Made by a program: the position numbers and the translations under genes
Part shown: piece after piece, positions 5,617 through 63,676 of the stretch
How positions within the stretch are numbered: the first letter of the stretch is position 1
How the letters are laid out: every line of letters starts with the position of its first letter
Origin: Marsupella aquatica
Lineage: Eukaryota; Plantae; Marchantiophyta
Direction of reading: 5' to 3'
DNA: 64,000 bases
Assembly (NCBI GenBank): GCA_973895155.1
Contig: OZ316891.1
Span: forward strand, 24,737,899 to 24,801,898
The notes under the pieces: model-generated
Told to the model about the DNA's origin: nothing
The model's database searches: none
Seen by the model: only the letters and a program-made list of their open reading frames with translations

Positions 5617-5620
5617 TTTT

Positions 5621-5637: not shown

Positions 5638-5685
5638 GGCATTTCGTAAGCCGTGAGATATGAAGTTAGAACGGAAGCGTAGGTA

Positions 5686-22519: not shown

Positions 22520-22536
22520 TGGCGCTAGATGGAGGG
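22520..22536 (+). other. PBS of element B (tRNA-Asn-like), 17 nt from the LTR end
   Basis: TGGCGCTAGATGGAGGG, identical to the PBS of A and D. Confidence 0.8.
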
Positions 22537-22616
22537 GGCACTCATTTTGCCTTACGAGTGGAGCCGTGTAGTGAGCTAGTAACTTTTGATTTTGTACTCG
22601 ACGTGAAGGAAGGGGC

Positions 22617-28600: not shown

Positions 28601-28620
28601 GAACCCAGGTCGTAGATTAG
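22617..28620 (+). pseudogene. gag-pol: Element B single-frame gag-PR-RT-RH-INT polyprotein, disabled (TGA 22860-2, TAG 28296-8, frameshift near 28390)
   Basis: 22617..22862 and 23049..28298 share a frame; three CCHC knuckles, VPIDGGSG, FIDDF, WGIDYIGP; C-terminus VREDASHLSGELCD is in a shifted frame. Confidence 0.92.
28558..28572 (+). other. PPT of element B
   Basis: TTAAGTGGGGAGCTA before TGTGAC. Confidence 0.85.
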
Positions 28621-31600: not shown

Positions 31601-32409
31601 ACTAGAGGTTGTCAGTAGGCTTGGCCGCCGCCATTCCGGTTGGCACACTCGTAGTCGGCGGTCAACCGATCAGTACAGCGCGACCGGTAGTCAGCAGTTA
31701 GTTAGTCAGTAGGTAGTACCCGGAAGGTAGTATCCTCCGATTCTCTCCGCTATGGTAGTATTTAGGCTTCCCCTTCCGCGATGGGAAGGGGGAGAAGGCT
31801 TAGTTATCTCAGCAGAAGAAAGGCGAGGCACGGGGAGTCCCGGCCTGAGTAGGGTCAGAGCGTACTAAGGAGTGAGAGCCAGAGTCGAGCTTGCTGGGCA
31901 AGTGCGAGGCAGGGCCTCGTAGAGATTGGGCATCGACTACCGTTGGGCCTGCTGACCCCCTTTGAAGTTGAGTCAACCATGTAAACTGATGCTTCGCTGA
32001 GTAAATATAGTCTTTTCCCCTTAAATGTTTCTGAGAGTAACTGGTGTTGTGTGTATGCTTTGTCCGGGCAAAGGCGCCATTTTAAGGGACGTACCGGGTG
32101 CGGACTAATGGTAGGGATTGCCACTCATTGCATGTCACAAGGTCCTGTCACGTCGATGGCTTGAAAAGCCCCAAGTCGGGAGTTAGTCCGCGTCACTAAC
32201 TGAGGGAAAATTCCAGCGGTGGAAAATAAATATACCTATGACAAGTACGAATTATGCGAGTGTTATACCAGTAAGTATAGCGGCTTAGCCCAACTTAGGG
32301 TTATTGAAGGTCACTACACACCTCCTTGCCCGAACCCTCACCCCTACTGGTGGTCGAGGTCGCACCACGACACTAACCCGGATTTAAGGCCCAGGGTAGG
32401 GGTGCGACA
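28573..32409 (+). repeat. Element B 3' LTR (3837 bp)
   Basis: TGTGACAC...GTGCGACA; repeats the interrupted 5' LTR. Confidence 0.93.
28941..31427 (+). pseudogene. Element B LTR-encoded ORF (~830 codons), two in-frame TAG stops (29853-5, 31191-3)
   Basis: ORFs 28941..29855, 29904..31193 and 31224..31427 share one frame; the 5' copy has CAG at the second stop; homologous to the D LTR ORF (FGLP, DNG, HMxEPR, IGGKxY, SHIxIILxWY, ARLQT). Confidence 0.88.
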
Positions 32410-35400: not shown

Positions 35401-35632
35401 CGATGATCGATGGCGTTGTGAACCCTGCCGGCTCTGCCACAATGCCTGCAAAAAATCCCCTGTCCCTGCTACTACTCCCCACTTAGCCGTTTCAACCAAT
35501 TGGTCTACATCCTTTACTTCCTCCGGAATTGCAGCTAAAAAGGTGGATTCTATTGTAAAGCAGTCCTTGACTTCTTCGTCTTCTTCTTCCAAGTCACCTT
35601 CCATAGGTTCTTGCCATAGTCCGCTGGGGGGT
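32410..35632 (-). mobile_element. pol: Element C: truncated antisense relic of family A (end of gag-PR plus RT-RH-most of INT; nonsense codons near 33425 and 33080)
   Basis: Minus-strand ORFs 33425..35482, 33080..33412 and 32384..32986 are nearly identical to A pol; cut at SRFPGK by element B; homology ends abruptly at ~35632. Confidence 0.93.
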
Positions 35633-38109: not shown

Positions 38110-38467
38110 TGTGATGCCGCCGGTACGGCGGTTAATGAGTGATTCAGTCTAACTGCGCTCGGCACGCGCATTAGGTGGGTCTTAGGCCGCTATTATTAGC
38201 ATAACGACAGTATTTAGGTAATCATTAGGGGTAGGACATCATTAGGCAATAAGGGGGACTTCAGGTTCGGGCTGGCGGCGGGTTGCTATTCGCACACCCG
38301 GGTTACGAGCGTGGAGGGGCCCCTCCATCGGGTCCGTATAACGAACTTAAGGAAGCGGCCACTGACGCACGCTGACTCAGACCGGCGGAGTGGCCGGTGC
38401 ACCACAAGCGTGAGCGGTTCAACCTATGGGCGTCGAGGAGACGTCGGGGATCGACAAGCCCTCAAAG

Positions 38468-38475
38468 TATAAAAA
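38468..38475 (+). promoter_or_regulatory. TATA box upstream of the D LTR ORF
   Basis: TATAAAAA about 100 nt before ATG 38576, followed by a CT-rich leader; also present in the 3' LTR. Confidence 0.55.
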
Positions 38476-38575
38476 GGGAGCCAACCCTTTGTAGTGCACC
38501 AGTCCATCAGTCCGCGCGCCAGCTTCGACCCCAGCTCTCTCGTTCTCTCTAGGTCGCCACTACTATCTCCTCTGA

Positions 38576-41218
38576 ATGTCGCACACGATCCTCTCCAGCT
38601 CGGCCATTCGATTCTGGACGCAGTTCCTATCTACCGGAAGGCACTTGGCCGATTCATTGAAACACGCCAACCCGCGCCGATACGAGATCGAATGCGAATA
38701 CGAGAGAGCCATCCGCCTAGCAGGACGACACCACTACGTCCTTAACTTTGACTACCCGTCTCAGAGCGAGCTTTACCGACCAGCTGAGGTATCTGGGTAC
38801 TTCTTCAACGGAGACAAATATATCGGGTTCTGGGAAGCATTGCTTCGGCTTCCGGACGAGGTCTTCAATATCCCGGGTACAATCGACCTGCAGCGACATC
38901 ACTTCGACCACATCCCTGCCCAGGTTCGGGCTGTCATTAACGGCGAGTCCAGTACCAACCGTTCGACAAGGGCGTCCGCACTCGCTTCGGAGAACTTCTA
39001 CCAGCACCTACAGAGCTTCATGGGAACTCGGCCATCAACCAACATGACCAACTCAGCCGGACCCGTACCCGTACCCGTACCCGTGCCCATGCAACCTCAG
39101 CTTCGGCTTCAGCCTCAGCCGTGGCCTAGCCAAACCCCACCACCTATCACCCAGCCAGCACAGGTACGCTCCGTCATCAGCGCTGTGGATCTTAGCGATG
39201 ACGACGAGGCTACCCCACCCTTGACCAGGCGGCCCAGAGGAACAAGCGCTCGGGGGGCCGACACTATATCGTCCCCACCCCCTGCTCTGACCCCAGGAGC
39301 GGCCCCAGCAGACAACATGGTGACCGTGGCCGCCCCGGGCCCGTTACCAACCGCAGTGGCACTCCCCAGGCCCGATCGGGAGGATGGGGAAGTATCACCT
39401 TCCCCGAGTCAGTCACGGGGAAAGAAGAGGAAGGAATCCGCCAGTGCATCCGGGTTACCGTTGGCCACGGTAGCCGTAGCCAAGGTAACGATGCATCGCA
39501 TGGGGGAAAACGTTCACAGCAACATCCTCCATCCCAAGCATGCAGTGTACCTGAAGACTCAGGGATTTGAGCACCTCGCCTCTCTCCCCTGGAACACTTG
39601 CAGGTACTACGGGGAGGACATGACAGAATTCGTCAAGAATTATGATGACGTACGTCAACAGACTCGGCTGCGGGGAAGGAATATGTCCCTCACAGAAGAA
39701 CGGCTCAAGATGATCTTCGGGTTACCTGAAGGTGACCATCGAGTCGAATCACGGGCTCCCGGGGGCAAGGGGGCCAAGTACCAATCTTCAAGTTTTCCCT
39801 TAGAGGGATCAGTGGACAACGGGTTCGTGATGAGGACCTGCCTCATGCCCGAGATAGCTGAGCGGCTGGAGTTCCAGAGGTACGCTCTCCACATGATGGA
39901 ACCCCGGGGGGAGATCTCCGCCGCCCAGGTCATCCAGGTCGAGAACTATCGACCTAGGAAATGGGCGTCGTACTTCGCTAAGAAATTCCATGAAGAGATG
40001 GAGCGGCAAAGGAAGACGCTGTACATTGGCGGGAAAGCGTATTTCGCTAGCCACATCGAAATCATTCTTGAGTGGTACGCCCGGTTTGATCGACGAACCC
40101 TTCCCCGCATCAACGTTACAAAGCTGGTCCCAGCTAGGTGGGTTTTTCTGGCATTGGAGAGACGGCCCCAACCCGAGGCCCGAAGTCCAGTGGACACGCC
40201 AGCTTCACCCACCCCACCTCCACAAATAGCTGTAATCGTAACCGAGGAGGCGCCGGAGGGGTCGGTCGTCGCAACCGTTGATGCGACCCAACTAGCCGGG
40301 CTAAGTACAGAAGTTGGTACGGCAGAGGTCTTACCCAAACCCGGGTCTCCCAAGGACCCGCCGGTGGCAATTCCGGAGAATCGGACATTGCTGCAGGAGG
40401 ATACTCCGGCCCCTTCCAACGTTATGTCCCCAGGGCTGGACGTCACTGCCCCGGCCCCTGCGCGTGTTGATGTCTGCCCGTGCCCAAATCCGAACAGGCA
40501 CAACTTGGACCACCCGGAACTCTTCATACAGGGTACGTTTCTGAACGGGCTTCTGGGAGATTTCTCTCATCAAATTGCCCGGGATACCGGGGAGTTCATG
40601 GCCCGGAAGGTAGCCTGTTTCTTCAATCAGGAGTTGGTTGCCGCCGTAAAGGCAGGGCGGGCCCAGTTGGAGGCCCTTCAGAGGATAGAGCGGTACCGGG
40701 TGGAGTCCGTGTACCTAAAGAACAAAGTGGCGGCTCAAGAGGCTGAGCTTCTGCAACTACGACCCAAGGTTGCAGCCGCCGATGAGTTGTTAGCAAAGGC
40801 GTACGCTCTTACCGCCCTAGCCGAACAGGCCAAAGTTGGGAACGAGGCCGAGATTACACGACTCCGGAACCAGATTGACAGTTTGAAGAAACAAGCTGTC
40901 ACCTGGCAGAAAGACCTGGAGGAGGCCGAGGAGCGAGCCCAGCGGGACGCGACGGAGATAGCCACGCTGCAGGCCGAGATGGCGCGGCTCCAAACCGAGG
41001 CCGACAAGCAGGACCAGTTGGCGAGTAAACTGACGAGCGACGCCCAGCAGCTGGAGGAGGCATGTCAGGAGGCAGCAGAGGAGACGGACGCGGCGAGGCG
41101 AGAGAACGAATCTCTGCTGGACCAGGTCCAGCTCCTCAAAGCGGACAATGACAGGCTTCGAAGGCAGCGGGATGGCCGTTCCCATTCGGGCGGCTCTGGC
41201 AAGCGTGCCAGGCATTAG
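38576..41218 (+). CDS. LTR-encoded accessory protein of D (880 aa, intact)
   Basis: ATG-initiated ORF wholly in the LTR; GFEHLASLPW, EFV, LTEERLKMIFGLP, DNGFVMRTC; RGKKRKE basic patch; C-terminal coiled coil. Confidence 0.88.
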   Translation: MSHTILSSSAIRFWTQFLSTGRHLADSLKHANPRRYEIECEYERAIRLAGRHHYVLNFDYPSQSELYRPAEVSGYFFNGDKYIGFWEALLRLPDEVFNIPGTIDLQRHHFDHIPAQVRAVINGESSTNRSTRASALASENFYQHLQSFMGTRPSTNMTNSAGPVPVPVPVPMQPQLRLQPQPWPSQTPPPITQPAQVRSVISAVDLSDDDEATPPLTRRPRGTSARGADTISSPPPALTPGAAPADNMVTVAAPGPLPTAVALPRPDREDGEVSPSPSQSRGKKRKESASASGLPLATVAVAKVTMHRMGENVHSNILHPKHAVYLKTQGFEHLASLPWNTCRYYGEDMTEFVKNYDDVRQQTRLRGRNMSLTEERLKMIFGLPEGDHRVESRAPGGKGAKYQSSSFPLEGSVDNGFVMRTCLMPEIAERLEFQRYALHMMEPRGEISAAQVIQVENYRPRKWASYFAKKFHEEMERQRKTLYIGGKAYFASHIEIILEWYARFDRRTLPRINVTKLVPARWVFLALERRPQPEARSPVDTPASPTPPPQIAVIVTEEAPEGSVVATVDATQLAGLSTEVGTAEVLPKPGSPKDPPVAIPENRTLLQEDTPAPSNVMSPGLDVTAPAPARVDVCPCPNPNRHNLDHPELFIQGTFLNGLLGDFSHQIARDTGEFMARKVACFFNQELVAAVKAGRAQLEALQRIERYRVESVYLKNKVAAQEAELLQLRPKVAAADELLAKAYALTALAEQAKVGNEAEITRLRNQIDSLKKQAVTWQKDLEEAEERAQRDATEIATLQAEMARLQTEADKQDQLASKLTSDAQQLEEACQEAAEETDAARRENESLLDQVQLLKADNDRLRRQRDGRSHSGGSGKRARH

Positions 41219-42129
41219 CGGCGGAGTAGGAATAGATTAGGATTAGGATTGGCTTAGTCAGGCTCTTGGGACAGGCACCTGCCTTAGGTACAGCAACGCT
41301 GCCCTGCTGTCCAGCCTGCGTAGATTAGGATCTTCTAATAAGACACAGCCGTTTTCCGGCCTGACTGTCAGCTTAGTTAGGACCTTGGTCAGCGGATCTT
41401 CGGCGGGAGGACGCCCCGTTCCTCGGCTCTTAGTATTTAGTGCACCCCTCGGTAGAGGCAAGGGGGGGTTTTTAGTTTCAGAGTCGGACATCCGCGGGAC
41501 ATGCGGGGAGTCCCGACCTCTGGGAATGATAGAGTACCAAGGGGAGGGGGTAGGACTAAGCTCGCCGGGCGAGTGCGGAGCCGGGCTCCGTTGTAGTGTG
41601 CACCCTTGGCCTTGAACCTGTGCATTCCAGGGCTGTCGTGTCAACTAAGTGTACGCATATGTTCCCTTTGTAGTAAAATCCTTTCCCATCATTTTTCCTT
41701 CGTGTAAATCGAGATTGTATGCATGTGTGCGCATATGTGTGTGGGTTTCTCGTATATGGGTGGCAGCGCCGGGCCGAACGCACTACCCGAGACGTGCACA
41801 GGGTGCAGCCTGCGGGTAAGTGGTTGCGAGCACGGGTTGAGGACCTGTATCATCAAATCCGGATCGAAGGCGGACAGCACGAAGGCTTAGAAGCCCTTAA
41901 GCCGGGGTCGATCCTGCTATCGACTAAAGTACGTTCCGGCGGCGGAACACAAACCATACCTAGGAGGTGTCCGTATTTAGCAGTATGCGCACTTAGCGCT
42001 AGTTTACGAGAATAAGGTGCATTACGTGCTTCCCTTCCTGCCCGAACCCTCAGATTTACGAGGGATGTGCCCGTCTAAGCTGAAGTCTGAGTTAAGGCCG
42101 AAGCCTACGACGTGACATAGCCTTTGTTT

Positions 42130-42146
42130 TGGCGCTAGATGGAGGG
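42130..42146 (+). other. PBS of element D (tRNA-Asn-like)
   Basis: TGGCGCTAGATGGAGGG. Confidence 0.8.
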
Positions 42147-42240
42147 GGCACTCTACATATCGTAGAGGGGAGACATGTGCGTATTCACCTAGGCAGGATA
42201 CATCAGGACGTAGTACTAACCATTGCATTTATATGAGTAA

Positions 42241-50192: not shown

Positions 50193-51550
50193 TGTCGTAT
50201 AGTGCTAAGTATCAAAAGTGACTCTCCTCACCTAAAACCAGGGTTTCGATCCCTTTAAGAACAGATTTCAGAATGAATTGTATAACTTTTATCACTCCGA
50301 GTGATTTAGAGTCTTGAGCTCTATGTTGACTTCACTTCTCAATAAAAAAATCGAATAAACAAACAACAAAGTAACTGAACTTCTGATTTATGAATTAGAG
50401 AAGAAATGAGTAAGGATTTAGAGACTACAAGCTACTGCCACTCCTTCAGAAAGGATTTGGGCTCAGTATAGACATGAAATCTATCTCATAATTCATCCAT
50501 CTCACTCTTCAAAACACAAAGGTTAATGATAATGGAATTCTCAATCTGATGAAGCAGAAGCTTTCTGATTGCAAATGAATGATATGATTTAAAATGCCGT
50601 CAACATGGTTTGACATCAGCGATACGCAATTCAGTCAAACTCTAAACCATATTCCAGAATCAAAGCAACAGTACTAACTACTCTGAGAATCAGAATTTAC
50701 TTCTCATTTATCATTAACTATTCTTGAATTGGCTAGCGAATCCCGACTCTGCAAGCAAGCCTAGCAGTGAATTCAATACGAGTTTCAGAAATCTGCAACT
50801 GAATTCAATCACCACAGGAATCTCTTGAATTCAATCTTAACTTCAATCAATATAGCTTTACTTCCATACAAAACACTCACAGCATGCCTTGTTACAATGG
50901 AAGGAGGAGAAAACTATTCAGAAGACTCAATTCTGAATACAGTATTAACTCTATTTCTCTCTACTTCAAATGAGCATTCTACTCTGTCTTATAAGTGCTG
51001 GAATCCTAAAATGGAGGAGGTAAGAACAGTCGTGCCTTTCCAAGCTTAAAACTAAACAAGGGAGAAGCACAGCATAAGTACTTCAACAAGGGTGGTAGAA
51101 TACTACTTTACTAGTAATCTACTTCAAAAACTAAGTGTTGAGCGGACGCTGCTAGAAGCGTCTTAAGTAAAACCAACGGACGCTGCTCACACTGCTCACA
51201 GCGTCAATACTAGGGTGGACGCTGCTCACAGCGTCGTGTGTTGAAGCTGACGCTTTCCACAGCGTCGGTCGAAATCCTCATAGAGTCTTGGTGGCGGTCG
51301 GGCACTGCCAAAAGCGTCATGAGGAGGTTGGACGCTTCCGCAGCGTCTTGAGTAAAAGAAACGGGCGCTGGTCACAGCGTCGGGCAAAGTACACTAGGAA
51401 TCGTCAGGAAAGCCGGAGATGTCAAATATTTCTATAAGTGTCCAGAACAAGTAAATGTTGGCTGGAAGGTGTCTAAAGTGTAAGTAAATCTTGTGATATG
51501 CTAAAAATAAACAAGTTTCCAGAAAAAATTGCAGGGACACCCATACCACA
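50193..51550 (-). repeat. Element E 3' LTR (1358 bp)
   Basis: Direct repeat of 62319-63676, TG...CA. Confidence 0.97.
51145..51381. repeat. Array of 7 palindromic GACGCT-N5/6-AGCGTC motifs in the E LTR (U3 side); second copy at 63271-63507
   Basis: Copies at 51145, 51179, 51218, 51249, 51301, 51331 and 51364, some degenerate. Confidence 0.85.
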
Positions 51551-51565
51551 TAGCCCTCCACTTAA
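51551..51565 (-). other. PPT of element E
   Basis: Minus strand TTAAGTGGAGGGCTA directly before the 3' LTR TG. Confidence 0.85.
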
Positions 51566-51627
51566 ATTTCGCCGTGTCCCCACAAGACATGACCGAATTG
51601 AATCAGAAGCGAGTGACATGTTCTTCA

Positions 51628-52104
51628 TTAATAATATTCTGGCTTAATAATCCAAGTAGTGCTCAAAATCATTGACGGGAGTTGGGAGATATCCGAATCC
51701 AGAATATAAAAATCGAGGTCATGGAATTCTTCTCCGATCTGTATTGGGACTCCTTTAACTCTTCCCCAAAGATTAATGATTCGTCCATCGATTGATATCT
51801 GAGCAGATATCGGTTGTACTTCTTGATGAACAAATTGCTGGCACAGTCTGTGGGAGAGGAAATTAATTCGAGAGCCTGGATCAATAACAAAGTGTTGAAT
51901 AGCATGTCCTCCCAGTTTGATCTTGCCTTCAAAGGAATGTTGGAAAGCACGGGGTAAAGAATTCCAACAATCCATAGTAGCTTTGATGTCCCACATGAGC
52001 AGATAAATATCAATTCGAAGGAGAAAGAAGGAAACAATTGCAGGATGCTGCAAAAGTAACGGCTTATATACATATAAATGACAACACCGTTTGATATCTC
52101 TCAT
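51628..52104 (-). CDS. Second retropepsin-like (aspartic protease) ORF in the 3' region of E
   Basis: FVIDPGSRINFLS...GRVKGVPIQIG...LDFYIL...MILSTTWI retropepsin pattern. Confidence 0.65.
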   Translation of the reverse strand: MRDIKRCCHLYVYKPLLLQHPAIVSFFLLRIDIYLLMWDIKATMDCWNSLPRAFQHSFEGKIKLGGHAIQHFVIDPGSRINFLSHRLCQQFVHQEVQPISAQISIDGRIINLWGRVKGVPIQIGEEFHDLDFYILDSDISQLPSMILSTTWIIKPEYY

Positions 52105-52116
52105 AAATGGTGTCCT

Positions 52117-53472
52117 TCAAATCTGTGTCCTAGATAAAACACCTTGAATAATCACATCCGGATAAGAAGGAATAATAGGTAGGAACGCTAAACACCTAAG
52201 CGACTTGAACCCTTGGGAAGCCGGTAGCATACATTGTTTTGTAATCAACTGCTCCCTTAGCTTAACAAGCTTCTTCTCATATTTAATTGGAATAGCAAAC
52301 CCACCAGGACAAACCCAAACATAGTATGGATAGGGCCATGGAATTTCCGGCACAAGGGGCGGAAATGGAGCTTGAGCTCGTCGAAGCATATACACCCAAC
52401 ACCAAATTTCGAACTCCGAAAACTTATGTCGTCTGTCCTTATCAATGGGAGGAACCGCCTTCCCAGGTTCATATGTGCGAATCAAACTACGAATCCTCGG
52501 ATGGGATGTCATTGGCAAAATCTGCTGCTGCTGCAAAATGCTCTCCATCTCCAGATGTCGAAAAGCTACTCGAAAATGTTTCTTCTCCCACCTGTGAATT
52601 GAAGCCAAATTAGGGATAGGATTTCGGGGTGGCAAATCCACTGTATGCCGAAGTCGAGGAGGTACTCTGATAATGCGAGGGTCTTCGTCTTCTTCTCCAT
52701 CACTTGGTGCTCCTATCCAACGGAAAATTACATCTGGCATAGCGGAAGGAATCACTGACTCCTTAACTGGTCGAATTGGCAATGTAACAGGAGACGAAGG
52801 AGCAGAAGGTTCGGGCTCCAGTGGTTCAAATTCTTCTCTTGCAACAGTAGCTGGTTGATCTGCAATGGGATGCATTGGTACTAAAACAGGAAGTTCTTCT
52901 TTAAAATTATCGCTAGGTAAAGAGACTTCCTGGTTAGTTCGATCTGTCAAAAGTACAGGAAGGGGTAGCTCGTCTGTTCCGATAGGTGCTTCTCCCTGTT
53001 CAAAATCCTGGGAAGATGCTTCAGGAAAGATCTGTCGACTGATAGCATGGCGCAACCGTTTCCAAGATTTTCGAGTATACGTCACTGAAAACTCCTCCCG
53101 AATGTTTTTATCCTCGTTTGTAGCCAATGAAACTGGTGCTGAGCTGGTTGTCGAAGCGGGTGTCTCGGGTACCAATATGGGTACAGATATACCCATATTA
53201 CCAGATACCTGATTGCGACTCGGAAAACCAGCAGAGCCTCCTTCAATCAACTCATCTTCAGGAGAAACCCATTTTACAGGCGGAAATGAAGGAGCTCCTA
53301 TCGCGGCTATTGCCTCATCTAATTCCTTAGTTATATCCAAAGGAATCGATATGAGTGAACCAGGTGTAGACCAGGCAGGGTATCTTGCGACAGATTGGGG
53401 AGAAGTCACTGGTTCACCTACTTCGTCTATATCCACAATTGCATCCTCCGAATCAACTTTAACCAGCTTCAC
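52117..53472 (-). CDS. E accessory ORF, middle part (Pro/Ser/Glu-rich, unknown function); in frame with both neighbouring ORFs
   Basis: 451-aa ORF; frame is open from the TAG at 53563-5. Confidence 0.6.
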   Translation of the reverse strand: MKLVKVDSEDAIVDIDEVGEPVTSPQSVARYPAWSTPGSLISIPLDITKELDEAIAAIGAPSFPPVKWVSPEDELIEGGSAGFPSRNQVSGNMGISVPILVPETPASTTSSAPVSLATNEDKNIREEFSVTYTRKSWKRLRHAISRQIFPEASSQDFEQGEAPIGTDELPLPVLLTDRTNQEVSLPSDNFKEELPVLVPMHPIADQPATVAREEFEPLEPEPSAPSSPVTLPIRPVKESVIPSAMPDVIFRWIGAPSDGEEDEDPRIIRVPPRLRHTVDLPPRNPIPNLASIHRWEKKHFRVAFRHLEMESILQQQQILPMTSHPRIRSLIRTYEPGKAVPPIDKDRRHKFSEFEIWCWVYMLRRAQAPFPPLVPEIPWPYPYYVWVCPGGFAIPIKYEKKLVKLREQLITKQCMLPASQGFKSLRCLAFLPIIPSYPDVIIQGVLSRTQI

Positions 53473-53562
53473 AATTTCTGAGCTTAATATTTCTGACTCC
53501 TGGACCAGAGGGATTTCACCTATATTTGGGCTAGAACTAAGAGAGTCGGACGAATCATACTC

Positions 53563-54690
53563 CTATAAAGCCTGCAAAGCATCACTATTTGCCTCTATGG
53601 GAACCAAAACAGGGGTAGAAGTAAATCCATCATACTCGTCCTCAGCAGTAGAATGTTGAAGAGGTTCCCCTGAAAAACCTTCTTCATCCACCCTCACCTC
53701 ATCTTCAACATTCATCCGAGAAGCAGAATTATCCTGATCAACATCATAAATAGGCTCGGCAGCACAAGGTGAACACGAGAGTCGAGGTGACATAGAATGC
53801 TCCAACCCTGTTGGCATTGCTGAAGGAACATCTTCGGCAACTTGAGCCTCTCTTGGTTGGTGAAGAATCGGATCGTCACTCCCTTCAGCTGATGCTCTTG
53901 TCTCTTTCAATTTCCGAACTTCACCCACCAGTTCAGGTTCCTCACAGTCGAGTATTGCACATAGCTCTACCACTGTGGAATTGGCTCGGACTTCTCGTAC
54001 TTCAGGCATATAATTTGCTTCACCGGTAGATGCTCTCTGATTGTTGCGATAAAAATCTTTTTCCAAGACAAGCAGACAGTCATACTTATGGTAAATGTGA
54101 GCTAAATAAGGGGCCAAGTAGGTACACCTTATTTTCCCCGTTTTCAGCCTGCTACGAAAATTTTTGACCTGAGTATGAATTACTCGGTGCAAAACCTTCG
54201 TCCAATTGATAGACTGCGTCTGTTCTAATGAACAGATCACCGTTGCAGCGAACGAAAGAGTGATGCGCGTCTGGCTTTCTGGGTAGAAAATTGGTGCCAG
54301 AAATCGAAATAGACGCTGCAGAGAATTATCTAAGCAGTCCGCCGCTAGCCATCCATTCCGCCTCTTGAAAGATCCTGGAGCGAAGAAGGATTCTACATAA
54401 ACCCGAGGCTCACAATCAACCCTCTGTAAATCCTCGCCCTCCATCGGCGTCGAATAGACCTTCGCTATGAGCGCTTCAGTCCAAACACTGGGACGCGAGC
54501 GCACACCAATCCTTTCTTCAGCGTCCCAGACACCTTGATCGATAAGGCTGAATTCGCAAATCTTCCAAGGAAGTTGAAGCAGCTTCTTCAAGCCCATTTT
54601 TGCCAGAGCCGTCTTCAACTGCCGCCTATGCACTGCATTCGATGGAATGTCTGCGAGTATTGGTCGCGTCGTCAGCTCAGTCTCCGCCAT
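53563..54690 (-). CDS. E accessory ORF, N-terminal part; homolog of the A/B/D LTR-ORF domain, in the position of the Athila env-like ORF
   Basis: GLKKLLQLPW, TEALIAKVYSTP, NGWLAADC, INWTKVL and TYLAPYLAHIY align in order with the LTR ORF motifs. Confidence 0.72.
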   Translation of the reverse strand: MAETELTTRPILADIPSNAVHRRQLKTALAKMGLKKLLQLPWKICEFSLIDQGVWDAEERIGVRSRPSVWTEALIAKVYSTPMEGEDLQRVDCEPRVYVESFFAPGSFKRRNGWLAADCLDNSLQRLFRFLAPIFYPESQTRITLSFAATVICSLEQTQSINWTKVLHRVIHTQVKNFRSRLKTGKIRCTYLAPYLAHIYHKYDCLLVLEKDFYRNNQRASTGEANYMPEVREVRANSTVVELCAILDCEEPELVGEVRKLKETRASAEGSDDPILHQPREAQVAEDVPSAMPTGLEHSMSPRLSCSPCAAEPIYDVDQDNSASRMNVEDEVRVDEEGFSGEPLQHSTAEDEYDGFTSTPVLVPIEANSDALQAL

Positions 54691-55073
54691 CGCGTGACTT
54701 GTTAGCTCCGTAAGCTCAGTGAGAATCGTGTTCCATAGTGAACTAGGGCGAAGCGCGACTGCTTACTCCTCAGCGTCCCGTTGAGCTGTCGCAATCCGCC
54801 ATTGTACAAGATGCCTAGTCATCGGCTCACAGCGTCTCATGCAACTGAACTAATACAAAAGCGGACCTCTGCACAACGTCCTTTGTAAACTAAGTGGACG
54901 CTTCCCCAGCGTCGAGTTACAATGGACGCTTTTCACAGCGTCCAATGTAAAAACTGAAAGTAACTAAAAAAAATTAAAAAAATATGCCGAATACTTACTA
55001 GGGAGGGTCACTAATTCTAACTAAGTATAACTACCGCCCTCCACTTAAATTGCAACCTGTCCCAGGTGGAATT

Positions 55074-58046
55074 CTAAATGGAAGACTCATAGTACCGTTT
55101 AATCCTAAACCCATTGATTCTAGTGTTAAGTGGGTGACCATCTAAGGTAGTCAATGAAACTGAACCATTATCCCAGATGTGTGTAACTCGGTAAGGACCA
55201 ATCCAATGAGTATGAAGTTTCCCAGGAAATAGCATATAACGAGAATCAAAGACTAATGCTAAATCACCAACATCTAACTGCACTACGCGCAGCTTCTTAT
55301 CATAAGCAAGTTTACGCTGGTTCTGAATGGTGACTGTATGGTCTAATGCTAAAAGTCTAACTTCTTCTAATTTAACAATATTGGAAAACCGATGTGAGAG
55401 ACTATCTGAAGGAGAGAGTCGGTGTGGTACCAAGATACGTTCCGTTGGTAACGAAAATTCTATTGGAATAATACTATTCAGGCCATAGGTCAGATAGAAG
55501 GGGGTGTGAAGAGTTGTAATCTTCTCAGCGGTGCGGTAAGCCCATAATGCAGAATGGAGCTTCACATCCCAATCTGTCTTGTGAGATTCTACCATTTTAT
55601 TCAGAATCTTGCCCATAATGCCATTAGCTCTCTCGGTTAAGCCATTAGCTCGGGGGTTGTAAGGAGTAGTTTTGCGATGCTTGATAAGATAAAGGTCAGT
55701 GATTAACTCAATAGTTGAGTTAAGAAAATGCAAACCCCTATCGCTTACCAACTCCAAAGGACAACCAAACCGGGTGATAATGTGCTCAAAGAGAAATGCA
55801 GCTGCGGTTATAGCATCATTCTTGCGAGTAGCTTTCGCCTCTACCCATTTGGTGGCATAATCAGTGGCCAGAATAATATATTTGCTTCGGCTTTTCCGAG
55901 CTGCTGGAGAAATTGGGCCAATAAAATCAATCCCCCATTTCTCAAATGGTGCCAACGGAAGGATAGGCGTAAGAGGCCATTTGGAACTAGCAGTGGGCTT
56001 CCCGATCCTTTGACAGGGATCACAGGTCTTAATAAAATTGTAAGTATCTCGATGCATAGTAGGCCACCAGTATCCAGCATCCAAAATTTTCTTAACTGTG
56101 GTATTCACTGCATGATGCCCACCGGTTTCTCCTGAATGTAAAGCTTCAATTACTTGGGGAAGTTCCCTATCCTCTAGACAACGTCGCAATTGTTGATCAG
56201 GACCTTGTTTAAACAAAGTGCCCCGAATAATGGTATAGGGACCCACCTTATGAGCAAAGACAGCTCGTTCTTCCGCATTAAAGCCTTCAGGGAACGTTCC
56301 ATGAAGCAGCATGTGCACAATATTAAAATATCGAGAAGACTCCCCTTCAATGTGCCACAAATGCTCGTCAGGAAATTCATCGGAGAGATTATGCTGATTC
56401 TCCGGACCAGGTAACCGAGATAGGAAGTCTGCATTCTCATGATGTTTGCCAGGTCGGACATGAACTTCATAATCAAATTCTTGGAGTAGTAAAACCCAGC
56501 GGGCTACTCGTCCTGAGAGATCCACTTGGTTAACCAAATATTTTAAGGAATTATGATCAGTGTGAAAAGTAACCTGATACCCCAACAAATAGTGACGAAA
56601 TTTCTTACACGCAAAGACGATGGCCAAAGCTTCCCGTTCAGTGACGGAGTAGTTTTTCTCGGCTGCACTCATTTGGCGGCTGGCATAGTAAATTGGATGG
56701 TCACGGTTTTCCACATCCTTCTGACTGAGATTAGCTCCAATGCAGAACGCAGAAGAGTCAATGAAGACATGAAACTTCTTAGTCCAATCTGGGGGTGACA
56801 AAATAGGTGCAGAGATTAACCGATCCTTGAGCAACTGGAATGCTTGCTGCCGCTCCTCATTCCATGTATATTCCACATCACTTTTTAACAGTTGGGTTAA
56901 GGGTAAGGCAATATTAGCATGTTTATAAATGAACCGACGATAATACCCCACATGTCCCAGAAAAGCACGAAGCTGCTTTAAATCGGTCGGTGGTTGCAAC
57001 TCCATAATTACTCTAACCTTCTCTGTATCAACCTCAATGCCGCGTTGTGAAATAACATGGCCTAACAAAATTCCCTCCTTCATACCAATAAAGCACTTTT
57101 CTGGATGAAGACACAACTGAGCCTCTCTACACTTCTGAAATGTCTTCTCCAAATGGACGAGGTGTTCAGCCGCTGACCCGTAAACACAAAAGTCGTCAAT
57201 AAAAATCTCCATGAAATGCCGCAAATATTCTTGAAAAATAATCATCATAATGCGCTGAAAAGTACCCGGGGCATTACACAGCCCAAAAGGCATCATGGTA
57301 AATGCATATGTACCCCAGTCGGTGGTGAACGTAGTCTTGTCGCGATCCTCCTTCCGAATGGACACCTGGTTATAACCAGAGTACCCATCTAAAAAACTGT
57401 ATAACTCATGCAAGGCCACTGAATCAAGTACCAGATCAATAAATGGCAAAGGATAATGATCTTTCCGAGTGGCAGCATTCAACTTCCGGAAGTCTTGACA
57501 AACGCGAATTTTCGTTTTACCATCGGGTCCCGGCTTTTTGGGGACAATGACAATTGGTGAGACCCATTCACTACTCAAGACCGGGTAGATAAATCCAGCA
57601 GTCGTGAGCTTGTCCAACTCGTCTTTAACCAGGATGGAATATTTGGGATTCAAACGGTACTGTCTCTGTCGGACAGGTACTGCTCCTTCCATAAGGTCAA
57701 TACGATGTTCGCCCAAATGTGGATGGATACCTTTTAAATCAGAATGACTCCAGGCAAAGACATCTTTATACTGGGTTAATAAACTGATATACTGTTCCCG
57801 TAGCTCTCCTTCGATATGCTTACCAATATTCAAAAACTTGCCTGGCTCAATTTCGATTTTCTGACAAGCTTTTGGATCCACAATTCCATCCGTGAGGTTT
57901 GCCGGCTGAAGTCCAAGTTTGGATACTTCTGGTGCAAATGGCTCAAGGGTAGCTGACACTCCCATATCATGGTGTAAATCCCTATTAGCCTCAGTATTAG
58001 GAGGTTCGTCTGCTGCTGGGCCCACTTCCGATGATGAAGTTAATTG
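55074..58046 (-). CDS. pol: E Pol (RT-RNase H-integrase), in frame with gag-PR after a single TGA
   Basis: CQDFRKLN, LDGYSGYNQ, FIDDF, DSS...EREALA...TDH, WGIDFIGP, SDRGLHF; intact. Confidence 0.95.
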   Translation of the reverse strand, partial: QLTSSSEVGPAADEPPNTEANRDLHHDMGVSATLEPFAPEVSKLGLQPANLTDGIVDPKACQKIEIEPGKFLNIGKHIEGELREQYISLLTQYKDVFAWSHSDLKGIHPHLGEHRIDLMEGAVPVRQRQYRLNPKYSILVKDELDKLTTAGFIYPVLSSEWVSPIVIVPKKPGPDGKTKIRVCQDFRKLNAATRKDHYPLPFIDLVLDSVALHELYSFLDGYSGYNQVSIRKEDRDKTTFTTDWGTYAFTMMPFGLCNAPGTFQRIMMIIFQEYLRHFMEIFIDDFCVYGSAAEHLVHLEKTFQKCREAQLCLHPEKCFIGMKEGILLGHVISQRGIEVDTEKVRVIMELQPPTDLKQLRAFLGHVGYYRRFIYKHANIALPLTQLLKSDVEYTWNEERQQAFQLLKDRLISAPILSPPDWTKKFHVFIDSSAFCIGANLSQKDVENRDHPIYYASRQMSAAEKNYSVTEREALAIVFACKKFRHYLLGYQVTFHTDHNSLKYLVNQVDLSGRVARWVLLLQEFDYEVHVRPGKHHENADFLSRLPGPENQHNLSDEFPDEHLWHIEGESSRYFNIVHMLLHGTFPEGFNAEERAVFAHKVGPYTIIRGTLFKQGPDQQLRRCLEDRELPQVIEALHSGETGGHHAVNTTVKKILDAGYWWPTMHRDTYNFIKTCDPCQRIGKPTASSKWPLTPILPLAPFEKWGIDFIGPISPAARKSRSKYIILATDYATKWVEAKATRKNDAITAAAFLFEHIITRFGCPLELVSDRGLHFLNSTIELITDLYLIKHRKTTPYNPRANGLTERANGIMGKILNKMVESHKTDWDVKLHSALWAYRTAEKITTLHTPFYLTYGLNSIIPIEFSLPTERILVPHRLSPSDSLSHRFSNIVKLEEVRLLALDHTVTIQNQRKLAYDKKLRVVQLDVGDLALVFDSRYMLFPGKLHTHWIGPYRVTHIWDNGSVSLTTLDGHPLNTRINGFRIKRYYESSI

Positions 58047-61000
58047 TCAGGAGGGCCTAGTTGGTTTTATGGGAGCATCAGACAGATAAACTTCCAAGTA
58101 ACGAACTTCCTCCAGTTCAAATTCCAATGGCTGCAGGACTAGCGAAGAGGTCGAAAAATCCGAGGTGTACCCATCATCTGTTTGTGTTTCTCCAAAATGT
58201 GGTTCCGGAACCCAACTAACAGTCACCTTAGGCTTCCCAAATGAAAGCTCTTGAGATTGCCAATTAACCTGAACTTGAGCCTTATACAACCATGGTCGGC
58301 CTAACAAAACAGGAAAGCTGGATGGTATTTCCGGATTAATAACCACATAATCCAACAGAAAAGGGACACCAGCAATCAAAGTTTCTACTCTGGTCAGCTT
58401 CCCTATGGGTACCACACGAGACTGATCCGCCATGCGCAAAATCTTGGGAGTGGGCTCAAACTTAGTGAAACCCAAATTAAATGCTGCTGACTGTGTAATC
58501 AGATTAACGCTGGCTCCTCCATCCACAGGAACTCTCCGAATGACACACCCCTGGATTTGAACCTCAATTTCCATCGGTCCTTTGTCCTCCCACTCTGTTC
58601 GTAGCACATCCACCGAAGGTAACTTCTTCTTCCTCCGTTTTCCTGCAAGGAGGCTCCTCAGCTGTCGCCTATAAACCGGATTGTCCTGTAATAATTCCCC
58701 AATGGTGATATGTGCAGGATGATTCTTGACATCTTCAACAATATCATAACCTGGATTTTTCAGTGGCTTTTTAGCTTTGACTACTACTGGTGGGTTAGGA
58801 GATTGCACTTGCTCCTTAACTAGCTCTTCCAGATGGTCTTTCACTTCCAAAGAGATGTCGGGCAAGAAGTATTTTGGGTCATATCGGTCATAAGCAGGGT
58901 CGTCTTCTTTGTCGAGGCCTTCCTTACATGGCTTGCGCCCTTCATCCTTGGGAGCTTTCGCGACCTTCTGATGCTCGTGCTTCTTGGTCTCCTTTTTCTT
59001 CGAACGAGTAGTTGCGTAAATATTAGTCAGAACTTTATCCCGATTCTGAACTCGATCATTCGGCATACCAACTACTTCAGGTTTCACTAAATGACTTACC
59101 AAGACATCAGGCACCACCCCGGATATTGGTTGATGAAAAAGTGAATCTGGCTTTAATTCCACCCGATTTACATCCATATGTTGAATGAAGCTGCATTGCT
59201 CCATCTCTTCAGAATAAACCATCCGAATCTTGGCTTCAGGTCGACTTGCTTCTTTAACTGGCTCTTGAGCAAATCGAACCATCAGCCTAGGCTTAGCCGG
59301 ATTCGGGCATTCCACCGGTAAGTGTCCTTCTTTTCCACAGTTCCCACAGACAGGTGTATACCCCACCTCCTGTTTGGGATAAGGGCACTGGGGTGAATAA
59401 TGATCAGGTTGGCCACAATTCCAACAAGCCCCTTTTTGACGCGGCATTCCTCGTGGTGGGTATCCTCCCGGGGGTCCCATGGGTGGTCTTGACGTTGGTT
59501 TATTGAAAGTGGGCTTAGGTGGTCCCCAAGTCGGTCTGGAAGCAGGAGGTGGTGGGAAATACTGTCCAGGGGGTGCTGTTTGGACGGTATACGTGGGATC
59601 GTACTCATACTCCTCAGCCTCTTCTTGACCATCTACATAATTCACCGGGGTTCGTAATGTGGGGCACTCGTTCGGGTAATGGCCCTGCTGACTGCATCGG
59701 GTGCACCATACGTTCATTCTCATGGGAGCAGGCAACCTTCGTACTGGTTTTACCGCGGCGATATTGACATTCAACTTGGACAATTGGCCAGAGAGTTCTT
59801 CCATCATGCGATCCATCTTCTTCTGGTTGGGAACTTTATTATTCCCTTTTACAGAGGATTTCTTCTTTTTAGGAGCAACGGATTCTGAGTCGGAACTTGA
59901 GCTTGAACTATCACTAGTGCTCGAATTTGTACTCTCGTCCTCCTCACTAGTGCTACTTCCACTTGATTCCGTCTCCGAGTCAGATTTAGACCTGGACGTT
60001 TTCTTCTTCTTTCTTTTGTCTTTCTTCAGGTCCTTCTTAACTCGTTTTCTCTCTGAAATCTCCGAGTCTACGTACTTCTGGGCTGCCTCTTGTACTTCTT
60101 CCAAAGTGGTGCCACCTTCTCGTCTCACGTAACGAGCAATCCTGGAGGGTAAACCGTTAATAAACCAGTCCTTGATAGTAGATTTCGAGGTAGCTGGATT
60201 ATATTGATCTACCAAATCCAATAATTTGTCGGCATATTTCCTCACAGACCCATGTTTCTTCATGTGCAGATGTGAGATTCGGGCAAAGGCACGCGCAGCT
60301 GCTCCTTCTTCTTTATATTTGGCCAAGAAAGCAGCCTTCAATTTCCCCCAATCCTGCTTGTCCGGAAAACGGTCATACCATTTCTGAGCACCCTTTTTCA
60401 TTAGACCACCAAACAGATTGGCTTTTTCAGCGTCTTGACTCTGTCCATTGGATGCAGCTGCAGCTTCAAATTCTTTCAAATACACCTCTGCATCCTCCTT
60501 GGAAGTACCGAAGAACCGGTCGTACCTCACATTATTTCGAGCCATCGTGGTTGGAGCTAGGAGGGTAACGAAAGGAAGAGCTGATCGGGTAGCAAATGGG
60601 TTTGGGCTGCCCAAGCCTGAACTGCTGCTTGTCTCACTAGAAGACGAACCACCGGCTTCACTCAGTGGTTCTGGATTATCCAATTGTGAAAGATCGACAG
60701 AATTATCTTGGGCCAGCGATTCTGCAACTGTATTCTCGGGCAAACCCAAATTTCTTCCTTCGGTATGAGATAAGGCCCTCTCAGTGGTACTATCCACACC
60801 AGAGTCAATTTGGTTCACCGAACGTACTGTCTGCTGGCGGAGCTTGGTCTTTTGAGAACCAATAAGTTTTGGACCTGAACGAAGATTTACAAACAGGGGT
60901 CGGGTCGACGTGGGCCTTTCCAAAGAGCCACTTGCCTCTTGAATAGATCCCACTTGTTTCCACACACTACCCGGTGCAGGTGCTCCTGGTGACTGGAATT

Positions 61001-61100
61001 CGGGTAACAATGTGCGAGGGGTCACTACTAATTTTGCAGCATCCGAATTACTGGAGGTCTTGGTAGGTTTTCTTTTATTCGGTGGATCTCCCTCAGACAT
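58047..61100 (-). CDS. gag: E Gag-protease (three CCHC knuckles, VPVDGGAS protease)
   Basis: FFGTSKEDAEVYLKEFE capsid; CTRCSQQGHYPNEC, CWNCGQPDHYSPQC, CGNCGKEGHLPVEC; LLGRPWL. Confidence 0.93.
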   Translation of the reverse strand: MSEGDPPNKRKPTKTSSNSDAAKLVVTPRTLLPEFQSPGAPAPGSVWKQVGSIQEASGSLERPTSTRPLFVNLRSGPKLIGSQKTKLRQQTVRSVNQIDSGVDSTTERALSHTEGRNLGLPENTVAESLAQDNSVDLSQLDNPEPLSEAGGSSSSETSSSSGLGSPNPFATRSALPFVTLLAPTTMARNNVRYDRFFGTSKEDAEVYLKEFEAAAASNGQSQDAEKANLFGGLMKKGAQKWYDRFPDKQDWGKLKAAFLAKYKEEGAAARAFARISHLHMKKHGSVRKYADKLLDLVDQYNPATSKSTIKDWFINGLPSRIARYVRREGGTTLEEVQEAAQKYVDSEISERKRVKKDLKKDKRKKKKTSRSKSDSETESSGSSTSEEDESTNSSTSDSSSSSSDSESVAPKKKKSSVKGNNKVPNQKKMDRMMEELSGQLSKLNVNIAAVKPVRRLPAPMRMNVWCTRCSQQGHYPNECPTLRTPVNYVDGQEEAEEYEYDPTYTVQTAPPGQYFPPPPASRPTWGPPKPTFNKPTSRPPMGPPGGYPPRGMPRQKGACWNCGQPDHYSPQCPYPKQEVGYTPVCGNCGKEGHLPVECPNPAKPRLMVRFAQEPVKEASRPEAKIRMVYSEEMEQCSFIQHMDVNRVELKPDSLFHQPISGVVPDVLVSHLVKPEVVGMPNDRVQNRDKVLTNIYATTRSKKKETKKHEHQKVAKAPKDEGRKPCKEGLDKEDDPAYDRYDPKYFLPDISLEVKDHLEELVKEQVQSPNPPVVVKAKKPLKNPGYDIVEDVKNHPAHITIGELLQDNPVYRRQLRSLLAGKRRKKKLPSVDVLRTEWEDKGPMEIEVQIQGCVIRRVPVDGGASVNLITQSAAFNLGFTKFEPTPKILRMADQSRVVPIGKLTRVETLIAGVPFLLDYVVINPEIPSSFPVLLGRPWLYKAQVQVNWQSQELSFGKPKVTVSWVPEPHFGETQTDDGYTSDFSTSSLVLQPLEFELEEVRYLEVYLSDAPIKPTRPS

Positions 61101-62294
61101 CCCTCATTCTCCAAGCACGGGTGATTTTGAGACACCAGACCCGCTCCTCAGGAGTCTTTATGCAAGGAGTCACCATTTAGGTGCGACGTTATCACCCCAC
61201 TCCGGGAGATATGAACCTGCTTCCTCAAAGTGACTTCCCGTAGCGTCGTTCAACATCCCTTGCATGATTCCTCCCCCTTGCTATCCCGTAGCTAATACTT
61301 CCCTTCAGTGACCAGCCGAGATTCTAAAACCTCGTTTTCTCTGGTGCGTCCTTCAGGTTGAGACGCGGAAAGGCACACCAGAAGCGTCGCGCACGTTGGT
61401 TCGTCACAGATTCCACCGGACGCTGCTCACAGCGTCCACTGGGATCGGACGCTACTCGAAGCGTCCTGACTTGCGGAATCTTCTGGGACGAATCGCATTG
61501 GACGCTCTTCGCGGCGTCCTTCCTTATCTCCTTTACGGTGGCGATTACTGGAACCGGGCGTTCCCCATAATCTCCGACTTCCTTCACCCTGAAATTTCTT
61601 TACCACATGGTACGCTACACTAGGCCATCCTACTAATCAGACGTCTAACTCCTTCCTAATCTTCTACGCAATTCCTGGTGCATGATTCTTTCCGCTAACT
61701 CCCGAATGGAAATGACTAAATATCACTCCTGTGTGATCCTACCATTCAGCCTTAATATTACTAAATGCAAACTTTCATCTTCCCACCAGGTGATAGTTAA
61801 CCAATGTATGCCATTCCTCCCTCTCAGGCTCAGAACCCAAGAATTAACATAACGATTCCTCAAATTCCTAATTCTTAATGTTCCCAAAGATCGGATAGGT
61901 GGCATCGGTCACACGAACCAGGATGGTTGGACAATTTTACAAATCATACGTCCCGAGCAACGTTAGAATAACTTCACTTGTCACTCAAAGTGTCTTTGGT
62001 GTCTTCGACTATCTCCAAAGCAACTTGACGAGCAACAGCTCCTCTCTGTGAGGCCTTTTCTGGTGGGAGGGCGGTTTCTTCTCTTAAGTTTGGCACCACA
62101 AATTTTTCCAATACTCTTAAGAGAGCTTCCGGGGCGCTTTGGATAGAGTACGGCATCACCTCGAAATGGAAGCTCTTCATCTTTTTAACTGGAGTGATGA
62201 CGCATCTTCACAATTATAGTAGAACGTGAATTCCTCTCCCGTCTAGCTCCTTCTGGCATACACTGCCTGTACGTCAATTCAATCTTAAATTCGT

Positions 62295-62312
62295 TCCCCG
62301 GCAGCGGCGCCA
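62295..62312 (-). other. PBS of element E, tRNA-Asp type
   Basis: Minus strand TGGCGCCGCTGCCGGGGA, 6 nt from the LTR; one mismatch to the Athila-type TGGCGCCGTTGCCGGGGA. Confidence 0.85.
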
Positions 62313-62318
62313 AAAAGA

Positions 62319-63676
62319 TGTCGTATAGTGCTAAGTATCAAAAGTGACTCTCCTCACCTAAAACCAGGGTTTCGATCCCTTTAAGAACAGATTTCAGAAT
62401 GAATTGTATAACTTTTATCACTCCGAGTGATTTAGAGTCTTGAGCTCTATGTTGACTTCACTTCTCAATAAAAAAATCGAATAAACAAACAACAAAGTAA
62501 CTGAACTTCTGATTTATGAATTAGAGAAGAAATGAGTAAGGATTTAGAGACTACAAGCTACTGCCACTCCTTCAGAAAGGATTTGGGCTCAGTATAGACA
62601 TGAAATCTATCTCATAATTCATCCATCTCACTCTTCAAAACACAAAGGTTAATGATAATGGAATTCTCAATCTGATGAAGCAGAAGCTTTCTGATTGCAA
62701 ATGAATGATATGATTTAAAATGCCGTCAACATGGTTTGACATCAGCGATACGCAATTCAGTCAAACTCTAAACCATATTCCAGAATCAAAGCAACAGTAC
62801 TAACTACTCTGAGAATCAGAATTTACTTCTCATTTATCATTAACTATTCTTGAATTGGCTAGCGAATCCCGACTCTGCAAGCAAGCCTAGCAGTGAATTC
62901 AATACGAGTTTCAAAAATCTGCAACTGAATTCAATCACCACAGGAATCTCTTGAATTCAATCTTAACTTCAATCAATATAGCTTTACTTCCATACAAAAC
63001 ACTCACAGCATGCCTTGTTACAATGGAAGGAGGAGAAAACTATTCAGAAGACTCAATTCTGAATACAGTATTAACTCTATTTCTCTCTACTTCAAATGAG
63101 CATTCTACTCTGTCTTATAAGTGCTGGAATCCTAAAATGGAGGAGGTAAGAACAGTCGTGCCTTTCCAAGCTTAAAACTAAACAAGGGAGAAGCACAGCA
63201 TAAGTACTTCAACAAGGGTGGTAGAATACTACTTTACTAGTAATCTACTTCAAAAACTAAGTGTTGAGCGGACGCTGCTAGAAGCGTCTTAAGTAAAACC
63301 AACGGACGCTGCTCACACTGCTCACAGCGTCAATACTAGGGTGGACGCTGCTCACAGCGTCGTGTGTTGAAGCTGACGCTTTCCACAGCGTCGGTCGAAA
63401 TCCTCATAGAGTCTTGGTGGCGGTCGGGCACTGCCAAAAGCGTCATGAGGAGGTTGGACGCTTCCGCAGCGTCTTGAGTAAAAGAAACGGGCGCTGGTCA
63501 CAGCGTCGGGCAAAGTACACTAGGAATCGTCAGGAAAGCCGGAGATGTCAAATATTTCTATAAGTGTCCAGAACAAGTAAATGTTGGCCGGAAGGTGTCT
63601 AAAGTGTAAGTAAATCTTGTGATATGCTAAAAATAAACAAGTTTCCAGAAAAAATTGCAGGGACACCCATACCACA
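62319..63676 (-). repeat. Element E 5' LTR (1358 bp)
   Basis: Direct repeat of 50193-51550. Confidence 0.97.

Follow-up and report, generated by a model that had tools for sequence, protein, structure and literature searches.

How can a gene that stands between pol and the 3' long terminal repeat (LTR) of a retrotransposon come to lie within the LTR itself? The question is raised by a 64,000-nt stretch of contig OZ316891.1 of Marsupella aquatica (the window), which self-comparison resolves into nested LTR elements. One of these, element E, lies on the minus strand within the 3' LTR of element D and consists of a primer-binding site (PBS), a 1.2-kb leader, gag-protease (gag-PR), reverse transcriptase-RNase H-integrase (RT-RH-INT), a 3.5-kb cassette and the 3' LTR (Table 1). 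Its accessory open reading frame (ORF) is flanked by two copies of the polypurine tract (PPT), a layout that recurs in its family and in distant relatives, and elements A, B and D carry ORFs with a homologous N-terminal domain inside their LTRs. With a probability of roughly 0.6, E is read here as a young Athila-related Ty3/gypsy element that keeps a likely ancestral twin-module layout; its sister clade would have moved the gene into the LTR once, and the N-terminal domain (N-domain) of the accessory protein would fold like VANC21 and bind to the CG-palindrome arrays that the element itself carries, acting against silencing. The insertion of E is young, since its paired LTRs differ at only two positions and it has a target-site duplication (TSD), ACGAA.

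Twin modules around the accessory cassette

The 16-mer GCCCTCCACTTAAATT occurs exactly at 51553 and 55036, as first noticed, with no third match in the window allowing up to three mismatches. The repeat around the two PPTs extends to 28 nt at 86%. The upstream copy begins 22 nt past the pol stop and, on the element strand, is followed by GGTAG; its lack of TATG, already pointed out, is thus real, while the terminal copy reads TA/TG, with the LTR start at 51550 (the slash marks the LTR boundary here and below). The terminal module would define the LTR end. The upstream module, being without an attachment (att) site, would have no role beyond priming plus strands internally or acting as an RNA signal. 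Across elements, both sites are modules made up of a short hairpin and a G-rich tract. Covariation analysis of the hairpin gave 68% of cells pairing and 15 cells changed on both sides (0/500 shuffles), figures inflated by the kinship of the elements and by the structure having been chosen by hand. A recent PPT duplication within E was ruled out as the origin of the pair, because relatives at 55-65% INT identity have both sites. A twin PPT on its own is already known in kind, from the extra PPT of Athila4/Calypso and the att-less upstream PPTs of Sireviruses.

The first-pass annotation stated that in A, B and D the only terminal PPT sits at the end of pol. This needs a correction for A, where an exact second copy of the PPT, 12 nt long, lies at the gag-PR/pol junction (8583-8594, plus strand), possibly a central PPT. 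Element C has a counterpart of this extra copy with one mismatch (35474-35485, minus strand).

The E stretch is present, whole or in part, in seven sequencing runs, six of which were examined (X1-X6); the best-matching runs may be the source sample itself. Conservation of the upstream PPT within the E family, on which the earlier proposal depended, was borne out: among the contigs listed, the site is spanned in five of the six runs, without differences in X1, X2, X4 and X6 and with three letters and four gaps in X5, and no spanning contig was listed for X3. Diverged contigs that depart from E just past the upstream PPT still read GTAG there, not TA/TG. Among the joints and loose ends listed, there was neither an E-family LTR starting at the upstream PPT, of which contigs may hide rare variants, nor a joint linking the two PPTs. 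Cassette and pol are covered at similar contig depth; as depth is not copy number, it was not counted as evidence. Contigs of X1 and X3 have E's LTR and terminal module with other sequence upstream of 51587, and these may represent sister subfamilies or non-autonomous partners.

Layouts of relatives and direction of change

A metagenome scan yielded 80 relative loci, five of them with the ORF domain at an E-value ≤1.2e-5. In L001 (65% INT identity) pol is followed in turn by a PPT with TAGG, an ORF that has both domains, another PPT, this one with TA/TG, an LTR of ~1 kb and the PBS. Both modules also flank the ORF of L007 (55% INT identity), and L004 and L020 have, as in E, a PPT and GGTAGTTA after pol. 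L003, L005 and L006 show a PPT and TAA/TG directly after pol, with the ORF downstream. The ORF of L003 is likely within the LTR, because a 9-bp inverted repeat connects the post-junction sequence with the LTR end before the PBS; paired LTRs show the same directly for A, B and D. Not counted for layout were L002, L004, L008 and L020, which end too early, and the decayed L077, in which a terminal-type motif lies 4.7 kb past INT.

A pol tree of 35 rows and 891 columns, for which four distant rows served as the root, groups L003, L005 and L006 with A, B and D as a single clade (support 100/97). The branch of E is sister to this LTR-ORF clade (95/91), followed by L001/L002 with the Riccia rows, and the L007 clade lies outside. 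A tree from INT only supports the LTR-ORF clade weakly (86/84). Exclusions amounted to 22 of 125 rows for the RT tree, 51 alignments (short or distant) for the INT tree and 75 of 149 rows for the ORF tree. In angiosperm Athila the extra ORF also lies between pol and the LTR (PMC7264820, PMC11728184). Together with the pol tree, this makes the internal layout the likely ancestral one, kept by E, and a single internal-to-LTR move the likely direction of change. The direction favored at the outset thus fits the pol tree, on which one change explains the nine known layouts. The role then given to E, that of an intermediate or precursor of A, B and D, is not supported: its RT-RH identity to them is 64-66%, the approximately unbiased (AU) test rules out E and A/B/D as one pol clade (p 0.012), its ORF groups with those of L001/L002/L003/L005 (100/99), and the two-PPT layout recurs in distant relatives. 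E keeps the likely ancestral state and is not a transition form. According to the ORF tree, the best case of one ORF subtype that is both internal and LTR-borne is E/L001 versus L003/L005, not E versus A/B/D.

The opposite course would have the ORF LTR-borne early or twice, with E-type elements re-internalising the gene via a new downstream PPT and att site and retaining the old PPT as the upstream copy. Such a history requires two or more changes where the best pol tree needs a single one, and is at odds with the internal ORFs of the outgroup L007 and of angiosperm Athila; moreover, the upstream modules are unlike decayed terminal ones, and several have their own downstream GGTAG in common. 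It would agree with the ORF tree, in which A/B/D fall outside E+L001+L002+L003+L005, a topology that the pol data do not reject (p 0.087), and with the PBS type, which splits A/B/D from E/L001/L003. On balance it appears very unlikely. The PBS of A (5617-5645), B (22530-22560) and D (42125-42150) differs from that of E, L001 and L003. As the pol tree nevertheless places L003 with A/B/D, the primer apparently changed inside the LTR-ORF clade.

A proposed route into the LTR

Under the preferred reading, a terminal-type junction would have come to lie directly behind pol, through conversion between paralogous modules or through duplication of the junction. Everything downstream of this new post-pol junction would have become LTR and the old terminal module would have been lost. 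The junctions themselves bear on this route. In all six LTR-ORF elements, the post-pol junction agrees with the terminal modules of L001/L007 in 18-21 of 25 columns (att letters excluded) and with their upstream modules in only 9-12 of 25. The first-pass annotation had suggested a plain priming switch, in which plus-strand priming shifted to the existing upstream PPT and cassette and short LTR fused into one long LTR. TA/TG would then have been gained there by point changes, and the junctions of the LTR-ORF elements would have to descend from the upstream module, yet they resemble the terminal one, which makes the switch unlikely even though its direction agrees with the pol tree. Further in its favor, the upstream PPT occupies the exact position of the sole terminal PPT in LTR-ORF elements, and the two E PPTs, identical over 16 nt, could each be cleaved by the same RNase H. 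The anticipated LTR of ~4.8 kb is matched by the cassette plus LTR of E (4.84 kb) and only approximately by the LTRs of A (~4.6 kb), B (~3.8 kb) and D (~4.0 kb). In none of the E-family contigs listed does TA/TG follow the upstream PPT, and the module profile scored no relic terminal module in the LTR tails of A/B/D, a weak test after such divergence.

Literature searches turned up no description of plant elements that, as a clade, carry the accessory gene inside the LTR. Such a clade, polarised against its twin-PPT relatives, offers a natural case for studying shifts of the LTR boundary and the origin of 4-5 kb LTRs. TATA-like boxes occur upstream of the LTR-borne ORFs of L005 (~2950), L006 (~2980) and D (window position 38468). 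If they start the genomic RNA, the LTR ORF would lie in R/U5 and form its first cistron.

The accessory protein and its predicted fold

E and A/B/D were initially said to carry the same gene. This wording is too strong: the N-terminal ~200 amino acids (aa) are homologous, but the rest is unmatched and identity is 17-20%. With BLASTP, the N-domain of the E ORF (from 54690) matches the LTR ORFs of D (E-value 6e-5), B (6e-6) and A (2e-4). The profile-profile alignment proposed as a check gave a probability of 99.0 and an E-value of 4.7e-18 over 168 columns, with mild circularity as the sets were aligned separately but collected with one joint profile; the homology is real. The C-terminal domain (C-domain) of the E ORF matches L001 (E-value 2e-30), not A/B/D, whose LTR ORFs end in coiled coils. 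The in-frame stop at 53563-53565 is likely private to the window copy, because family contigs of X1, X2 and X5 differ at this codon. Pfam returned no informative match for the accessory ORFs of the window, E included. The joint profile for the accessory ORF retrieved 140 clusters, and 9 of the 85 scanned match PF20167 (Transposase_32), all below the curated cut-off. Atlas places the E N-domain in Transposase_32 (PF20167) and ATHILA (PF03078) clusters at 0.92 and gave nothing at ≥0.9 for the C-domain. Homologues of the E N-domain were absent among proteins of 658-2000 aa (0/479 candidates), and a scan of viral contigs found no relatives. Accessory ORFs are frequent in Athila-type elements, and publications describe them as having no known function (PMC7264820, PMC11728184); the 3' ORF of angiosperm Athila has PF20167 (PMC11728184), and a 2026 paper does not settle the Athila question (PMC12844716).

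Structure models of the N-domains are confident, with a predicted local distance difference test score (pLDDT) of 93.0 for E and 92.4 for D, the alignment behind the D model containing no E-type rows. Compared with 48,161 chains, the E domain best matches VANC21 bound to DNA (9LNK; Z 7.4, root-mean-square deviation (rmsd) 4.2 Å, 203 aligned), the next chain having Z 2.0. The D domain likewise best matches VANC21 (9LNK; Z 8.2, rmsd 4.0 Å, 202 aligned; next Z 2.4). In both cases the matching part of VANC21 is 294-556, with almost the full length of each domain aligning to it. The sites bound by VANC proteins are short, family-specific and arranged in arrays in non-coding DNA, and the proteins remove silencing (PMC5735166); they are also structurally homologous to MAIN/PMD (PMC13547354). 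PMD proteins act via DNA motifs, one of them palindromic, and PMD-A proteins are known in retrotransposons (bioRxiv 2024.09.27.615353), as are PMD-encoding retrotransposons (PMC6317226).

Motif arrays as candidate binding sites

The GACGCT..AGCGTC array was at first described as lying downstream of both PPTs. Its 12 matches, against 0 in 100 shuffles, confirm the motif, but copies are also present at 61419-61465 in the 5' leader, a region without a PPT. Because of these leader copies, the arrays were ruled out as the mark of a second U3. AGCGTC is found 25 times in the 2.9 kb of non-coding DNA of E (6 before the ORF, 12 in the LTR, 7 in the leader), with 1.25 expected, and 3 times in the 8.1 kb of coding DNA; the largest count of any CG 6-mer in 60 shuffles is 9, and ten other elements contain 0-3 copies each. 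Five of the six elements with an E-type ORF have a CG 6-mer of their own above the shuffle maximum, one being shared by L003 and L006.

The N-domain of E would then bind sequence-specifically at the arrays in U3, in the 5' leader and before its own gene. Judging from the fold match and the arrays, sequence-specific anti-silencing is the most likely function of the E protein, about as probable as other roles taken together; for the superfamily as a whole it is less probable. Only tentatively can this be extended to the Athila-type accessory ORF in general (Transposase_32/Athila, "env-like") as a VANC-fold anti-silencing protein that co-evolves with family CG-palindrome arrays, one bryophyte clade having put the gene in the LTR. 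If this holds, the reach of sequence-specific anti-silencing would widen from DNA transposons of eudicots to the LTR retrotransposons found in early land plants, and relocation to the LTR would mean that the gene is carried by every insertion and every solo LTR. Given the VANC21 match and a defined candidate site, GACGCT-N5-6-AGCGTC, in non-coding regions, the Athila ORF question is reduced to one binding assay. The literature search found no link of Transposase_32/Athila ORFs to the VANC fold and motif arrays, although the VANC21 structure paper and Sasaki 2022 may mention retrotransposon VANC-like proteins.

It is also conceivable, at clearly less than even odds, that the layout is right and the protein does something different (RNA export, particle chaperone, env-like), the arrays being host transcription-factor sites or RNA hairpins. 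Every GACGCT..AGCGTC unit also forms a 6-bp hairpin, A/B/D have the predicted fold without arrays, and the motif repeats of Sireviruses in the LTR and before the env-like gene were interpreted as regulatory sites (PMC2829016); the middling fold match, considered below, points the same way. Such a role fits less well with two separately built models that share one VANC21 range, far above all other chains, with the use of DNA motifs, one palindromic, by the related PMD proteins (bioRxiv 2024.09.27.615353), and with a top motif that varies by family.

Weighing the reading

Two sets of observations weigh against the reading of E as an Athila-related element with an ancestral layout and a DNA-binding accessory protein. 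The first concerns layout. The modules of E itself do not discriminate, as the junctions agree with its terminal module in 10-14 and with its upstream module in 9-13 of 25 columns, and the likeness to terminal modules could be due to convergent selection on terminal sites. Single-sequence folding gives weak hairpins, one of eight being clearly better than shuffles. Only nine elements are of known layout, and the LTR start of L003, L005, L006 and L007 was placed by the junction signature, in L003 together with the 9-bp terminal inverted repeat, and not by paired LTRs. The pol data do not reject A/B/D outside E+L001+L003, and the ORF tree contradicts the one from pol, whose grouping is rejected (AU p 0.011; long branches present). 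Because of this conflict and the p value of 0.087, two separate moves or a reversal may have taken place instead.

The second set concerns the protein and its sites. At Z 7-8, rmsd 4 Å and an identity of 7-8%, the match to VANC21 counts as middling, given that in helical folds such Z values can reflect mere arrangement. VANC21 was missed both by Foldseek, with nothing at an E-value ≤0.001 in PDB and BFVD, and by a hidden Markov model search of PDB sequences, which gave chance matches only. No CG 6-mer exceeds the shuffle maximum in any of the five elements whose ORFs belong to other subtypes (A, B, D, L004, L007). Among the elements with an E-type ORF, the motif of L002 only equals that maximum, the CCGG words of L003 and L006 are about equally dense in coding DNA, and the ORF type of L006 was judged by eye from a fragment. 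The motif counts are not independent either, as the elements are kin.

Comparison with known systems

With TG..CA LTRs, a TSD, the order gag-PR-RT-RH-INT and no chromodomain match in Pfam, E belongs to the non-chromovirus Ty3/gypsy elements. Pfam gave no match to an extra RNase H, the single RNase H region lying between RT and INT. Phygy/Selgy are short elements whose internal part is almost all polyprotein (PMC6317226), unlike E with its 3.5-kb cassette and 1.2-kb leader. The nearest named pol relatives come from the liverworts Riccia and Calypogeia. Tat Z1/Z2, which are without extra RNase H, share the domain order and the occurrence in liverworts (PMC10508981); compared by description only, they differ in that the accessible part of that source describes neither an accessory ORF nor a twin PPT.

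Athila4/Calypso share with E an Asp-tRNA PBS, the absence of an extra RNase H, a sense ORF between pol and the 3' LTR and a PF20167-like domain, as well as one extra PPT in the linker (PMC2829016). However, E has its extra PPT directly behind pol, and its sister elements have the ORF inside LTRs of 3.8-4.6 kb. In both the RT and the pol tree, E stands apart from the angiosperm rows, which are presumed to be Athila, in a clade of liverwort-named and unnamed proteins. Sireviruses also have identical upstream PPTs without an att site, and motifs in the LTR and before the extra ORF (PMC2829016). In contrast to E, they are Ty1/copia elements with about four PPT copies, mostly after the ORF; in E a single copy, accompanied by a hairpin, precedes the ORF. 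VANC (of the Mutator-like VANDAL elements) and PMD (MAIN/MAIL) have family-specific motif arrays in non-coding DNA in common with E, and the fold predicted for the N-domain of E may be shared as well. The E protein differs from VANC in being encoded by an LTR retrotransposon of a bryophyte host rather than by VANDAL, in its low identity (7-8%) and in its CG-containing palindromic motif, binding and demethylation being only predicted for E.

Features of the locus

Table 1. Features of element E and LTRs of neighboring elements used for comparison (window positions).
Feature	Position	Strand	Remark
5' LTR of E, 1358 bp, TG..CA	62319..63676	-	2 differences from 3' LTR
TSD of E, ACGAA	63677-63681 and 50188-50192
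3' LTR of E	50193..51550	-	motif array 51145-51381, copy at 63271-63507
PBS of E, tRNA-Asp type	62295..62312	-	17/19 letters identical to the Asp PBS printed for FIDEL
GACGCT/AGCGTC motif array in 5' leader of E	61242..61518	-	without PPT
gag-protease ORF of E	58047..61100	-	terminal TGA in readthrough-like context
RT-RNaseH-integrase ORF of E	55074..58046	-	in frame with gag-PR
Upstream module of E	55036..55067	-	hairpin 55055-55067, PPT 16-mer 55036-55051, then GGTAG, without TA/TG att site
Motif array before accessory ORF of E	54772..54942	-
Accessory ORF of E, 857 codons	52117..54690	-	one in-frame stop, 53563-53565
Domain order of accessory ORF of E			Transposase_32-like N-domain (~54031-54690, predicted VANC21 fold), acidic/Pro-rich linker, C-domain
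Short frame 3' of accessory ORF of E	51628..52116	-	weak aspartic-protease likeness
Terminal module of E	51551..51589	-	hairpin 51574-51583, PPT 51553-51568, TA 51551-51552 before LTR TG
5' LTR of element A, 4.6 kb	993..5616	+	ORF of ~1200 codons with E-like N-type domain
5' LTR of element D, 4.0 kb	38110..42117	+	880-aa ORF, domain with predicted VANC21 fold
3' LTR of element B, 3.8 kb	28573..32409	+	with LTR ORF

The gag-PR and RT-RH-INT parts of E form one frame with a single stop, TGA CAA TTA (58041-58049, minus strand), which is identical in a family contig; the equivalent site of L001 (814-822) reads TAG CAA TCA. A stop codon followed by CARYYA is a readthrough context. Both sites fit this pattern, which suggests programmed readthrough after the protease. 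The frame at 51628-52116 (162 codons, in frame) has DPG at the catalytic position and scores an E-value of 0.024 for PF13650, 2e-4 against E's own protease and 0.011 among 4592 ORFs. L001 is without such a frame; in L010-L012 a protease-like stretch, judged by eye, follows the integrase.

The 3' end of element A (11841-21011) consists of two tandem LTR copies, the second without the first ~139 bp, and one TSD, GGCGT, flanks the whole. Element A (993-21011) sits in the LTR ORF of B and element E (50193-63676) in that of D, with CG in both TSDs.

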